64,000 nucleotides of DNA, taken from contig CAWDRG010000009.1 in assembly GCA_963804645.1 (NCBI GenBank), forward strand, positions 160,001-224,000. The letters run 5' to 3'. Positions within the stretch are counted from its first letter, which is position 1, and every line of letters starts with the position of its first letter. The position numbers and the translations under genes are program-made. Of the stretch, positions 51,168-56,475 are shown in pieces. Source of the stretch: an uncultured Bacillota bacterium. GTDB taxonomy: Bacteria > Sysuimicrobiota > Sysuimicrobiia > Sysuimicrobiales > Segetimicrobiaceae. Below the pieces are notes generated by a model. It made no database searches. It worked only from the letters and a program-made list of their open reading frames with translations, and had not been told where the DNA came from.

Positions 51168-51838
51168 GCCTGCGGGACCGCCAGATTCTGATCACATCGG
51201 GCCCGACGCGGGCGCCGCTCGATGCCGTCCGCTACCTGACAAACAAATCCACCGGCCGACTCGGGTCGCTGATCGCGGAGGGCGCGCTCGATGCGGGCGC
51301 CGACGTCACGTTCGTGTACGGCCGAGGCAGCGCCCTCCCGGCGGTTCGCGGAGGCGCAGCCGACCATCTCCGGCTCTTGCCGATCGATACCGTGGAGGAC
51401 CTCGTCGCGGTGTTCGATCACGAGCTCCCGCGGGGAGTGGATGCGGTCATTCACGCGATGGCAGTCCTCGACTTCGAGCCCGCGCAGGTCAGCGAGGAAA
51501 AAGTGACCAGCACGCTCCACGAGTGGGTGATCCGCCTGGTGCCGACCCCCAAGGCCGCCGCGCGCGTCCGGGACCTGGCGCCTCGGACGTTGTTCATCGG
51601 GTTCAAACTCGAGGTCGGGAAGGACAAGACGGCACTGGTAGAAATCGCGCGCGACTGGGCGCAACGCAACCGCGCCGATCTGGTGGTCGCAAACGACATG
51701 CGCGACATTGAGCGCGGCATCCATATCGGCTATCTCGTCACGCCTGAGGGCTCAATCGAGACAATGGCGGAGGGCAAAGAAGCCATCGCCCGCGCGCTGG
51801 TTGACCTGCTGAACCGGCGTCTCGGCGGCCGACCTTAG
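51164..51838 (+). CDS. coaB: Stand-alone phosphopantothenate--cysteine ligase
   Basis: ITSGPT..PLDAVRYLTNKSTG.LG, HAMAVLDF, PTPK, GFKLE, VVAND; no CoaC domain. Confidence 0.88.
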   Translation: MSLRDRQILITSGPTRAPLDAVRYLTNKSTGRLGSLIAEGALDAGADVTFVYGRGSALPAVRGGAADHLRLLPIDTVEDLVAVFDHELPRGVDAVIHAMAVLDFEPAQVSEEKVTSTLHEWVIRLVPTPKAAARVRDLAPRTLFIGFKLEVGKDKTALVEIARDWAQRNRADLVVANDMRDIERGIHIGYLVTPEGSIETMAEGKEAIARALVDLLNRRLGGRP

Positions 51839-51907
51839 CGATGTGATCAACGGCGTTGCACGACGGTCGATAGGACGACGCGCGGGCCTCGGTCGAAGAG
51901 TTGAAGC

Positions 51908-52099
51908 GTTGACAGCAGCTGTTGATTTAGTGGACAAATGGCCCCAAACGGGTATTGAGTGTGCCATACCTTTGGCATGAAACTCACGGCTTGGCCCCGC
52001 CGCTCGCTTCGCGAGGTTGACTGCAGCTGTTGACTGAGTGGACACATGGCGTCAAACGAGTGTGCTATACCTTTGGCATGATGTTCACGGCTTGGCCCC
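51908..52099 (+). repeat. Imperfect ~85-90 bp direct repeat (51908-51998, 52016-52099)
   Basis: GTTGAC.GCAGCTGTTGA.T.AGTGGACA.ATGGC..CAAAC...GAGTGTGC.ATACCTTTGGCATGA...TCACGGCTTGGCCCC twice. Confidence 0.9.
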
Positions 52100-52362
52100 G
52101 GCGCGCCGGGATCCACTTCCAGACCGCCCGGCCATGGTTTCATCAGCGCGTGCGCGCGGTGCCGGCGCGGCAACGGTCGACCGGGACCCTCCTGATCGAT
52201 GGGCCGCTGGCGCCGAACGGAACCACGGCGGCGCTGTCCGCGCGTATCGCCTCTTGGGAGCCGCACGTGGATCTCGACCGCCACGTGACCGCCACCAAAA
52301 CGGCCCCGCCGCACCGGTCACGGCGGCGGCGCCGGACTCCGCCGGGCGGCATCCGACGCTGA
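52078..52362 (+). pseudogene. IS607-family serine recombinase TnpA remnant
   Basis: MerR-like AW.RRAGIHFQTA..WF...VPARQ..TGTLLI; YARVSS degraded to SARIAS; DLDRHV; rest deleted. Confidence 0.75.
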
Positions 52363-53092
52363 TGCAGCGCACCTTCGCGACCCGGCTCCCGCCGGATGCG
52401 GCGCGGGATTCCGTGCTGGCAGCGTACGCCGCGCTCTACGGGCGCGCGGAACGGACGCTCTTTGCCCGGTTGCGCGCCGGGAGGGCGCTCGCCGCGACCA
52501 AGCGCGAGTTTCTCGTGCGCTTCGGCCTCACGGCCCGCCAGTTCAACGCCCTCGCGGCGTCTCTGCGCGGCAACATCCAGTCGATTCAAGCACGGCGGCC
52601 GGGGCTCATCAACACGCTGGAGCGCCGGATCGACCGGGCGCGGCGCGTGCTGGCGACGGTGCCCCAGGGCACCCGCACGTATCACCAGAAACAGCGGCGT
52701 CTTGGGGCCCTCCAGCGGCGCCTCACCGTGCTGCAGACCGAGGCGGCCGTGGGGAGCGTGCGCCTCTGCTTTGGTTCCCGGACGTTGTTCCGCCGGCAGT
52801 TCGCGCTGGCGGCGAATGGCTACGCGTCACACGATGCCTGGCGCCGCGAGTGGCGCGCCGCCCGCGCCAGCCAGTTTTTCGTGCTCGGCTCGAAGGATGA
52901 GACGGCCGGCTGCCAGGGGTGCGTCGCTACGGTCGAGCCGGACGGCACGATCGTGCTCCGGCTGCGCCTGCCGAATGCGTGCGCCAGCCGCGGCAAGCAC
53001 CTGGTGCTCGCCGGGCTGCGCTTCCGGTACGGGCACCAGGCGGTCGTCGCCGCGCTCGGGCGCAACCTGTCCCCCGACACGCATCATTGGGA

Positions 53093-54551
53093 GGCTCTTC
53101 GGGAAGTTGTGTGGGTGAAATAGCGTAGACCAGTAGAAACCAACGCCTGCCGACCAGCTCAAAGCCAGACACCTACCCCCGCCGGCCGTCAAGAACATGG
53201 CCTTCGGCGCGCTGCGCGCTTCTTGACCGCCGTCGGGGGCGGGTGCACCCCTGCCACTATGGTCGGCAGGCGCAATCTGACCCGCGGGGCGGGAACGCTT
53301 CGTGAGGAGGCTGGTCTGGTGCGCGATGTCGAGTTATACGCTACGATCCTGGGGCTCACGCCACCGTGGAAGGTGGTCGGGGTGGAGGTGGATATCCCCG
53401 GCGAGCAAGTGACGGTGAAAGTCGAGGCGGGCCCGGGCCCGTTTCCGTGTCCGGAATGTCAGACGCCGTCGCCGGGCTATGATCGCCGTCCGCGGCGGTG
53501 GCGGCATCTGGACACGCTCCAGCTGCGCACGTGGATTGAAGCCGATGTCCCGCGGGTGCAGTGCGCTCAGCACGGGATCAAGCAGATCACCATCCCGTGG
53601 GCCGAGCCGGGCAGCCAGTTCACGCAGTTGTTTGAGCGGTTGGCGATCGACTTTCTGCGGGAATGCTCGGTCACCGGCGCGGCGGCCCTACTCCGGATCA
53701 CCTGGGATGAAGCGTGGGGGATTAAGAGCCGGGCGGTGAAGCGCGGGCTGGCGCGCCGGACAGCGGAACCGATCCCGTACGTCGGCGTGGACGAGAAGGC
53801 AATCACCAAAGGCCACCGGTACTTGACCGTGGTGGCGGACCTGCAACGCCACCGGGTGCTGTTCGTCAACGAGGATCGCAAAGCGGAAAGCCTCGACGCC
53901 TTCTGGCCCACCTGCACGCCGGCCCAGCGCGAGAGCATCGCCGCCGTCGCGATGGACATGTGGGAGCCTACATACACTCGGTCACCAGTCACGTGCCCGA
54001 CGGGGTGGACAAGATTGTGTTTGATAAGTTCCATGTCGTGAAGCATCTCCACACGGCCGTGGACAAGGTGCGGCGGACCGAACACCGGGAGTTGTCCCGC
54101 TCCTCCGATCGTCGGTTGACGGGGACGAAATACCTTTGGCTACGCCGGCCGAGCGAGCTCAAGCCCGAACAGCGGCGCACCTTCCGGCTCTTGCTCGGCG
54201 ATGACCTGAAAGTGGGACGCGCCTGGGCACTCAAGGAGCGCTTCCGACATTTCTGGGAGTACAGTTACCGCCGGTCCGCGGAGACGTTCTTCGCGCGCTG
54301 GTTCTGGCGCGCCACGCACAGCCGGCTCAAGCCTATGGCGCAGGTCGCGTGGCTGATCCGCAGGCACCTACCGAACGTGCTGACCTACCATCGCCACCGC
54401 ATCACGAATGCCGGGCTCGAGGCTGTCAACGCCACGATCCAGTGGGTCAGGAAGACCGCACGCGGCTTCCGGAACGTCGACAATTTCAAGACGGCCATCT
54501 ACTTTCACTGCGGAGGGCTGGACCTGTACCCACTCGAAAGCCGGTAGAGGC
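53093..54551 (+). mobile_element. ISL3-family element
   Basis: Left end GGCTCTTC, right end GTAGAGGC; 8-bp target duplication CATTGGGA (53085-53092, 54552-54559). Confidence 0.92.
53319..54547 (+). CDS. ISL3 transposase (frameshift near 53968)
   Basis: CPEC Zn finger, RRWRHLD, GVDE, AMDMW, FDKFHVV, TNAGLEAVN, ARGFRN. Confidence 0.92.
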
Positions 54552-55299
54552 CATTGGGAAGCCCTCTCCTGGCGGTTTGTACAGGACCGCAAGGGATGGC
54601 GCGTGCTCGCCACCGTGTCGGTGCCGGCCGGACCGAGGCGGAGCATGGAGCACCTCGGCGTGGTCGGCGTGGATCTCAACGCGGATCACCTCGCGGTGAC
54701 GGACGTGGACCGGTTCGGCAATCCGATCGCCGCCTTCCGCGTGCCGTGCCCGACGCGCGGCAAGCGCCATCACCAAGTGCGCGCGATCATTGGCGACGCG
54801 GTGGGCCAAGTCGTCACGTATGCCTGTCTCCAGCAGAAGCCCATCATCGTGGAACGCCTGCAGTTTGATGACAAGAAGGCGGCCCTGGAGCAGCGCGGCG
54901 CACGTTGCGCCCGGATGCTGTCGGGCTTCGCCTACGCGGCGCTCCACGCGATCATCGCAGCGCGCTGCGACGACGCGGGCATCGCCCTCCGGCGCGTCAA
55001 CCCCGCGTTCACGTCCGTGATCGGCGCGCACACCGTCGCCGCGCGCTACGGTCTCTCCCGGCACCACGCCGCCGCCTGCGCCATTGGGCGGCGGGGCATG
55101 CACCTCGCCGAGCGGCCTCCCCGCCGACTGGGCGACCACGTCACCGTCCCCCTACCCGTGCGGAATCGGGGGACGCATGTATGGTCGTTCTGGCGGCAGG
55201 TCGCGCGGCGGGACGCGGCGCTTCGAGCGCACGGACGGCCGGGCCCCCCCGGGGCCCGATCCTCGCTGGCACCGGCTCCGGGATCTCGACGGAGCGCGG

Positions 55300-55455
55300 C
55301 TCAGCGTGGGATCCATCGCACCAGCGGGTCGTCTGCTCCATCTGCCGGTGGAACTCCGGCACGCGAATCGCCAGCAGCACTGTTCGGCTGGCGTCTGGGG
55401 ACAGGTCCCATATGTCCGCAGAATAAGGAACGGTGGAGCGCCACTACCCGATGTT
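55300..55455 (+). ncRNA. Putative omega-RNA scaffold plus guide (5' limit uncertain)
   Basis: Consecutive hairpins TGCCGG/CCGGCA (55343-55361), CGCCAGC/GCTGGCG (55369-55393), GGACA/TGTCC (55399-55417) at the tnpB 3' end. Confidence 0.5.
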
Positions 55456-55521
55456 GTGATGTCCAGACATCGGGGCGCCCGTCGGGTGTCCACCCGGGTC
55501 GCGCGGGTATCCCGCGCGCCT

Positions 55522-55550
55522 TTGACTAGGGGCGGCGCAGGTCCTATAAT
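55522..55550 (+). promoter_or_regulatory. Sigma70 promoter of tRNA-Gly
   Basis: TTGACT-17 bp-TATAAT, 30 bp before the tRNA. Confidence 0.85.
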
Positions 55551-55580
55551 GTGCGGTAGTCGGTGATCGGGAGGACGCGA

Positions 55581-55657
55581 GCGGGAATAGCTCAGTCTGG
55601 TAGAGCATCTGCTTCCCAAGCAGAGGGTCGTGGGTTCGAATCCCATTTCCCGCTCCA
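55581..55657 (+). tRNA. tRNA-Gly(CCC)
   Basis: GCGGGAATAGCTCAG...TCTGC-TTCCCAA-GCAGA...GGTTCGAATCC...CCGCTCCA. Confidence 0.97.
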
Positions 55658-56475
55658 ACATTGATCTAAAGCCGCGAGACTTTCAGGCCGCGCCCGGATC
55701 CTCACCATCATTCGCATTGCGGCATTTCGCTACCGCCTGCTGCCCGAAACATCGCAGCAGCATCGGCAGTTGGCCGGACGCGATGCGCTCGCTGTTCGGA
55801 TGGCATGCGTGGAGCCGCAACCTCGTCGATGCGCTACTGGACTACGGAATCAACCGTCACCTCACTTCCGCGTCCCAGCCCCGTGATTGGTGCCCAGGGC
55901 GTCGCGCCGGTCTCGAGTCGTCGCGTCGCGCCAATGAGCGGCGAACAAGTTTGCCCAGTCCAAGCGGGGTCCCTCGTCGACGACGGCGCCTCGAATGGCG
56001 GCCCTTGTGCTACGGCATGCGTGGCGGTGGTCGGCTGGAACCGCGCAAGCTTTCGTCATCGATCGGCTGGCATCGAGGAGAGATGCCACGCCGTCACGAC
56101 TCCATCTCGGTAAGGAGCATGCTACGCTGGCCGCCGGGCCTGCGTGATCCTACCGGTACGGCGAGCGAGCTGACGACCGTAGCGGACCCCGATCGCCACG
56201 CTCAACCGATCACGGTGTTGACCCTGGAGCGAACTGATTCGTTCGCGAAGACACATGCGCCAAGCGGCAGCCACTCATGCAGGGAATCTATACAAAAAGC
56301 CGTCGTTGACTAACCCACCATCTAATCCATCATCCGGATGAGGAACAGATGTTGGGTCTGTAAGGAGCTTCTTCGAGCTGCTACGGTGGGCTAGTCGTAG
56401 TCTTCGCTCCCTTCAGTCCAATCGTCTCTCGTCCACGATGGGCATGTCCCAATCAAAGAGGGGGCGCCTGCGACT

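Follow-up and report, generated by a model that had tools for sequence, protein, structure and literature searches.

As described by Altae-Tran et al. (2023; PMC10691335), TnpB proteins are split into five major clades, one of which is RIIIr-4. That paper defines RIIIr-4 by the replacement of the RuvC-III Asp with His and by the loss of the C4 zinc finger, and predicts the clade to be active. The supplementary text of the same paper does not mention RIIIr. Among the 59 orthologs assayed by Nety et al. (2023; PMC10278001), the sole one listed with an RIIIr-4 label is ortholog 39 of Nocardiopsis dassonvillei, and no biochemical study of an RIIIr-4-type protein was found beyond that paper in a literature search that covered, for the DEH/catalytic-histidine query, the best 15 of 51 matches. 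Here we describe a locus from an uncultured Bacillota bacterium (assembly GCA_963804645.1). The window, meaning the whole stretch of DNA that was analysed, comprises 64,000 nucleotides (nt) of contig CAWDRG010000009.1 (positions 160,001 to 224,000, forward strand), and coordinates are positions in this window unless another locus is named. At about 51900-55436, between coaBC/dfp and tRNA-Gly(CCC), the window contains a decayed IS607-family element with a TnpB-related gene. With good confidence, the intact relatives of this element consist of a serine recombinase TnpA, an RIIIr-4 TnpB-type protein and a 3' guide-type RNA.

According to Supplementary File S2 of PMC10278001, ortholog 39 has 529 residues, contains the motifs GVDANADHLA, GNPIG and IAVEDLDF, and showed a clear RNA processing site (scored 'Y'). 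The RNA sequence printed in that paper encodes S-R-H-D-A-A-A. Judged from the reverse primer, the right end would read ...TTCAGGAACGGT, which has the same terminal motif as the window. The family of the window gene shares with RIIIr-4 the His in place of the RuvC-III Asp, the absence of a C4 zinc finger, a large mobile membership and a length of about 515-530 residues. GVD.NADHLA, GNPI and (I/V).VE.L.F are common to the family and the labelled Nocardiopsis member (PMC10278001), and the right ends close on the same AGGAACGGT. By these defining features and by a comparison of motifs by eye with the one labelled member, the sequences of the TnpB-related family match RIIIr-4. Two differences were noted. 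The window copy is broken and has no working tnpA, and the covariation found here covers only the last ~230 nt, whereas the scaffold of ortholog 39 is given as 466 nt (PMC10278001, Supplementary File S2). The window copy is a further example of a TnpB kind already described. A preliminary description of this DNA, made from the sequence alone, had proposed an under-characterised His-substituted RNA-guided protein; the proposal was supported, although the clade had already been named RIIIr-4 (PMC10691335) and one member had been assayed (PMC10278001).

The TnpB-related gene and its protein family

The 5' frame of the TnpB-related gene (52362..53123) starts with MQRTFATRL... and enters foreign sequence at 53093. 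When 53093-54559 was deleted, the remaining 731 and 970 bases gave 1701 bases in frame, corresponding to 566 codons and a stop, and the rejoined junction ...HHW(E)ALSWRF... was colinear with the unbroken homologues. This junction and the CATTGGGA duplication bear out the earlier proposal that one ISL3 insertion splits the gene and that its excision gives a 566-codon open reading frame (ORF). The motifs listed in the preliminary description were all read in the window, namely GVDLN (Asp codon at 54672-54674), IVERL (Glu codon at 54852-54854), VNPAFTS and SRHHAAA (conserved His codon at 55062-55064), and no CxxC was found after VNPAFTS in the window frame. The long basic helical N-terminal region was likewise recovered: the N-terminal half of the window protein contains 42 Lys plus Arg and 14 Asp plus Glu, with an isoelectric point of 11.8, and in the model of P0007, a close relative, presented below, it consists largely of helices. 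The gene had also been called large and atypical; its size and its N-terminal region are normal for the clade.

A search with the C-terminal half as the query gave 4697 candidates, of which 3102 had E <= 0.001. The full-length homologues mostly have 500-525 residues, and they are named 'IS605 OrfB family transposase' or 'IS200/IS605 family accessory protein TnpB-related protein' in their sources, so that the family was already in the databases, as had been expected. The catalytic site was examined in an alignment of 117 full-length relatives that are 42-84% identical to P0007, the reference. The RuvC-I Asp (Asp283) and the RuvC-II Glu (Glu343) were each present in 117 of 117 relatives. The RuvC-III position (His413, the first His of SRHHAAA) was His in 114 relatives and Asp in three, and retention of Asp by the homologues, which the preliminary description had named as a possible outcome, was not what was seen. 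The linker from NPAYTS to this His, which takes the place of the zinc ribbon, was 22 residues long in every one of the 117 relatives and contained no more than one Cys, and PF07282 (zinc ribbon/TNB) reached 12.6 bits against a cut-off of 26.3. The strict conservation of the three site residues across the alignment, with Asp as the sole alternative to His, argues for catalysis.

Local pseudogene decay was considered as the origin of the His and of the missing zinc finger, since both the window copy and the second copy in the genome are pseudogenes. However, relatives down to 42% identity, from several phyla, have this His and the 22-residue linker as well. Because of this distribution, the two features are, as judged from the alignment, family traits, and local decay is refuted, with practically no probability left to it.

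The two halves of the split gene were scanned against curated models, and TIGR01766 passed with 35.2 bits against a cut-off of 32. With hhalign, the stretch from RuvC-I through NPAYTS was aligned to 14 canonical TnpBs of the same phylum (probability 92%, E 5.7e-7), and the RuvC-I Asp and RuvC-II Glu were placed on the canonical TnpB motifs. The tie to TnpB at the level of sequence is thin but real. No canonical TnpB over the cut-off was found in the bacterium's own genome.

An AlphaFold2 model was built for P0007 on the 117-sequence alignment. P0007 is 86% and 79% identical to the window protein in the C-terminal and N-terminal halves, respectively. The model has a mean predicted local distance difference test score (pLDDT) of 84.9 and a predicted template modelling score (pTM) of 0.76, with helices at residues 16-169, strands at 172-266 and disorder at 477-521. 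Foldseek with this model found 57 PDB chains at E <= 0.001, almost all of them type V effectors, Fanzor or TnpB, and the top matches were Cas12k (first), Cas12e, Cas12f, Cas12m, Cas12g, Fanzor2 and TnpB. VIA-align aligned 318 residues with Cas12f at 3.5 Å (Z 17.6, spanning model residues 1-458) and 287 residues with ISDra2 TnpB (Z 16.4, spanning residues 1-429), and Cas12k scored lower, at about Z 15. Model residues 276-429 alone superposed on RuvC of T. thermophilus (Z 13.2), with no inserted zinc ribbon, whereas RuvC itself is a 160-residue dimer without WED, REC or RNA. A His is also among the catalytic residues of Thermus RuvC. The model and the two structure comparisons predict a RuvC/TnpB/Cas12 fold, so the outcome in which no RuvC fold is predicted, also considered at the outset, did not occur. 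A WED-REC-RuvC architecture is predicted for the TnpB-related protein, and from the matches to Cas12f and TnpB, the long basic helical N-terminal region therefore corresponds to WED and an enlarged REC lobe.

Compared with canonical IS607/IS605 TnpB (ISDra2 TnpB; NF040570), the family has the same predicted domain layout with the RuvC-I Asp and RuvC-II Glu aligned, the same kind of guide-type RNA overlapping the 3' end of the gene and stopping at the right end, and a serine recombinase as partner. It differs in having His for the third catalytic Asp, no zinc ribbon/TNB and a longer REC, with ~515 residues in place of roughly 350-450. Cas12f and Cas12k gave the best whole-protein structural matches of the family model. 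In contrast to these systems, neither a CRISPR array nor cas genes were seen next to the window gene, where no dedicated search was made, and the guide of the family would come from the transposon flank.

The serine recombinase, the element ends and the 3' RNA

The genomic context was examined at 77 related loci. Dehalococcoidia, Nitrospirota and other uncultured lineages account for most of them, and a single genome often holds several. Thirty-four same-strand ORFs of 150-260 residues were found to end at the start of the gene. Resolvase PF00239 was present in 31 of these 34, behind an N-terminal part of ~55 residues, which is the layout of IS607 TnpA. An IS607-type serine recombinase gene therefore lies directly upstream in 31 of the 77 loci; the remaining 46 had no such upstream ORF by the criteria used, and some of them are cut by contig ends. 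The serine recombinase partner suggested in the preliminary description was found intact in these 31 loci and as a remnant in the window. The elements are mobile, with several copies per genome and sharp ends. They begin with GTTGRCA... at the left and finish with ...AACGG at the right, without an obvious inverted repeat. The start GTTGAC... is common to the left ends of related elements, and CAACGG-like words are directly oriented in some clades. In a Dehalococcoidia clade (L031, L051, L055, L074, L044 and L045), the element runs ~40 bases beyond the GGAAYGG that ends the clade of the window, and its right ends finish with ...TTTTTTACAACGG. Since the right end of this clade lies further out, the 3' end of the RNA scaffold varies between clades.

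The DNA at about 55176-55436 was conserved over 73 loci, third codon positions included, and the protein tail encoded in this region is disordered in the P0007 model. RNAalifold was run on a set of 52 sequences, less than 90% identical over the RNA stretch and with the second genomic copy included, and gave 32 pairs in 7 helices, with compensatory double changes in 25 of the 32. Paired cells amounted to 93.9%, against 35-47% when the 3' partners were slid by 1-3 columns, and the covariation score was 0.451 against 0.123 or less in the slid controls. None of 500 shuffles reached any of the five observed measures. G-U and U-G cells numbered 213 and A-C and C-A cells 32, and from this excess it follows that the structure is that of a sense-strand RNA and not of duplex DNA. 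The region previously suggested to encode an RNA (55250-55460) overlaps the RNA supported by covariation. RAGATH-18 and other curated Rfam families were considered as the identity of this RNA and were ruled out, as an Rfam scan gave tRNA only.

At the right end of the element the RNA ends with AACGG, a motif common to all clades examined, and past this point independent copies are unrelated and diverge completely at once. By analogy, a scaffold followed by a guide derived from the flank is the layout of an omega/reRNA. The TGA stop codon of the family is located in the 3' arm of a helix (GCTGACG). In the window and in the sister copy this arm reads GCTGGCG, and the 5' arm is changed to match (CGCCAGC; window 55368-55391), so that both genomic copies retain the helix but lack the stop codon. 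Contigs from four RNA-library runs fall on parts of 54561-55360, with no coverage from 55361 onwards; these contigs carry no ends, strand or level, may include DNA carry-over, and show presence in the libraries and not transcription. A contig of run X12, an RNA library from another sample, carries a related gene that is ~93-96% alike and unbroken across the ISL3 site (window 54561).

State of the window copy and of its sister copy

The features of the locus are listed in Table 1. The window copy is dead and non-functional because tnpA carries an internal deletion, ISL3 (itself frameshifted) interrupts tnpB and the stop codon of the family is lost. Positions 52078-52287 encode the first 70 residues of TnpA, with 43% identity to TnpA of locus L007 (E 2e-15, BLASTP). 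ARVSS has become ARIAS, the catalytic domain (about residues 71-179) is missing, and the tail matches residues 180-193 of L007 TnpA weakly and ends on the start codon of tnpB. Since the frame jumps from residue 70 to the tail, the deletion is internal and in frame. The NCBIfam IS607 model gave an E of only 0.21 on this remnant. The relatives of the TnpB-related protein end after ...LFG at TGA, while the window codon there is TGG (55389-55391), and the frame extends 46 codons to 55529, beyond the end of the element. Removal of ISL3 gives back an open frame only and does not restore a working element, a point that the preliminary description had missed.

Two left ends stand in tandem (51908-52003 and 52016-52104) as a direct repeat with 85-89% identity, both with the start codon of tnpA. 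A match to the left end of the second genomic copy was also found, at 51908-51955. The tandem does not look like a recent duplication but like what is left of a second element adjoining the first. The coaBC/dfp gene ends ~60 bases ahead of the left end of the element.

The ISL3 insert has 1459 bases, begins with GGCTCTTCGG and finishes with CGGTAGAGGC, and the two CATTGGGA copies stand 1467 bases apart. As in the ISL3 family, it has a DDE transposase with zinc ribbon and helix-turn-helix and an 8-bp target duplication. The transposase frames match PF01610 (1.3e-14 and 2.9e-52), PF14690 and PF13542, and NCBIfam NF033550 matches in two pieces. A 1-base deletion at ~53966 breaks the transposase into two frames, 53223-54041 and 53960-54547. 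Four full-length copies of this ISL3 were found in the genome, the window copy and three others, listed at 100% identity. At 53960-53970 the window reads CC, while the copy on contig C8 reads CCC and keeps a 474-codon open frame; the difference could be a homopolymer assembly error instead of true damage. The left part of the insert contains a 26-nt inverted repeat (85% complementary; window 53170-53245), which is 82% like the sequence adjoining the IS110-type insertion of the sister locus (L006 5382-5447). Other contigs also hold short matches to it, and it is possibly a palindromic element of the repeated kind.

One further copy of the element is present in the genome, on contig C10 (locus L006, G000:C10:186000-199000), and this sole sister copy is likewise broken. 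Its left end abuts the start codon of tnpB without tnpA, and tnpB is split at another site by 3.5 kb with IS110-type and DDE_Tnp_1 transposases. The homology of the two copies stops at 55436. The sister copy lies in a cluster of mobile elements (L006 900-8600). The RNA region is present in two copies only in the bacterium's own genome. Among 21 searched genomes of the family, six had any match. In the related genomes G082, G071, G034, G056 and G040, most matches are limited to the 3' third of the gene, the part overlapping the RNA. Such matches could represent derivatives, decayed or miniature, in which the RNA and the right end survive.

Table 1. Features of the IS607-family element, its surroundings and the sister locus (L006).
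Feature	Location	Strand	Remarks
Left end, first copy, with first 9 tnpA codons (ATG 51977)	51908..52003	+	Orphan, truncated
Left end, second copy	52016..52077	+	Directly 5' of tnpA remnant
tnpA remnant, IS607-type serine recombinase	52078..52362	+	BLASTP to L007 TnpA
TnpB-related gene, 5' part	52362..53092	+	Codons 1-243 and 2 bases; predicted WED and enlarged REC
ISL3 target-site duplication, left copy	53085..53092	none	8 bp, CATTGGGA
ISL3-family insertion sequence	53093..54551	+	Pfam and NCBIfam ISL3 matches; splits TnpB-related gene
ISL3 target-site duplication, right copy	54552..54559	none	8 bp, CATTGGGA
TnpB-related gene, 3' part	54560..55529	+	With predicted RuvC domain
Conserved structured RNA, putative 3' part of omega/reRNA scaffold	55208..55436	+	Overlaps disordered gene tail; ends ...AAGGAACGGTGG
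Flanking DNA, putative guide segment	55437..55456	+	Length assumed; by analogy with TnpB systems (PMC10278001)
tRNA-Gly(CCC) gene	55581-55657		145 bases 3' of the element's right end
IS110-type transposases near sister copy	L006 924-1988 and 5708-7165	-	The latter interrupts the TnpB-like gene
Group II intron reverse transcriptase/maturase near sister copy	L006 2650-3957	-	
DDE_Tnp_1 transposase near sister copy	L006 6843-8510		Interrupts the TnpB-like gene

Function of the RIIIr-4-type proteins

Two proteins are encoded by the intact relatives: a serine recombinase TnpA of ~196 residues, by which the element is moved, and a TnpB-type protein of ~515 residues from the RuvC-III-rearranged clade RIIIr-4, with predicted WED-REC-RuvC domains, a conserved Asp-Glu-His site and a short linker in place of the zinc ribbon. 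A structured RNA would be transcribed from the 3' end of tnpB and would stop at the right end of the element. By analogy with TnpB systems, the TnpB-type protein would bind and process this RNA, its 3' extension, derived from the flanking DNA, would lead the complex to the matching empty site, and such guided targeting would help the element to be retained or to spread. The results obtained here by computation are the fold, the degree of conservation at the site, the linkage to the recombinase and the structure and strand of the RNA, and RNA processing was demonstrated for one member of the clade (PMC10278001).

Several results weigh against this interpretation. Ortholog 39 was scored 'N' in the double-stranded DNA (dsDNA) target-adjacent motif (TAM) screen (PMC10278001, Supplementary File S2), and guided dsDNA cleavage is unsupported for the RIIIr-4 clade. 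In the proposed comparison with hidden Markov models, TIGR01766 was over its cut-off, the curated guided_TnpB model NF040570 was far under its own (34 against 100 bits), and no Pfam model was over its cut-off on either half of the gene. The profile of the 117 relatives found only three chance matches (E ~2) among PDB sequences, and a solved structure of the clade was therefore not found. Membership in RIIIr-4 was assigned from shared features and motifs compared by eye, not from a tree. Rfam at E <= 1 on 51800-55800 had no match except tRNA, and for the window copy itself the evidence for the RNA is its conservation.

A single negative TAM screen argues either that the substrate or conditions differ from those of canonical TnpB, or that the protein only binds. 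On balance, we lean slightly towards an active enzyme with a substrate or conditions other than those of the dsDNA TAM screen. A catalytically dead RNA-guided DNA binder like Cas12k or TldR, which for example steers the serine recombinase or represses transcription, would account for the replaced RuvC-III Asp, for the inactivity of the sole assayed clade member in the TAM screen (PMC10278001) and for Cas12k as the first entry in the Foldseek list. However, the site residues are strongly conserved, and in the dead derivatives known from PMC10691335, several or all catalytic residues are gone. The elements are also mobile and multi-copy with no fixed neighbour except tnpA, and VIA-align placed the active Cas12f and TnpB over Cas12k; we consider a dead binder rather unlikely. 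The alignment of the RuvC domain alone to the Holliday-junction resolvase RuvC, together with the lack of the zinc-ribbon insertion of TnpB, would fit a protein that is not RNA-guided but is a structure-specific nuclease resolving IS607 intermediates, with the conserved 3' sequence as a DNA site of the recombinase. This explanation appears very improbable, since the alignment with the guide-RNA binders Cas12f and TnpB takes in the whole protein, WED and REC included, the G-U asymmetry fits RNA and not duplex DNA, and in vitro processing of such an RNA was seen for a clade member (PMC10278001).

Returning to the preferred interpretation of an active enzyme, we put forward a more specific version only tentatively, as it is more doubtful than the general one. 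RIIIr-4 proteins might be active RNA-guided enzymes in which the Asp-Glu-His site and the zinc-ribbon-free RuvC domain confer a substrate or chemistry that a TAM screen does not see, and the ~230-nt scaffold might be the core of a class of guide RNA outside Rfam. Targets in this case would be, for example, single-stranded DNA, RNA, a nicked strand or the excision junction of IS607.

By itself the locus is the wreck of a transposon; what gives it value is that it points to a large clade of TnpB (>3000 database proteins) in which the nuclease domain is structurally compact, the Asp-Glu-His site is conserved and the guide-type RNA is well defined. Once found, the targets of these proteins would widen the known chemistry of RuvC-based RNA-guided systems and would clarify what service TnpB provides to transposons moved by serine recombinases.

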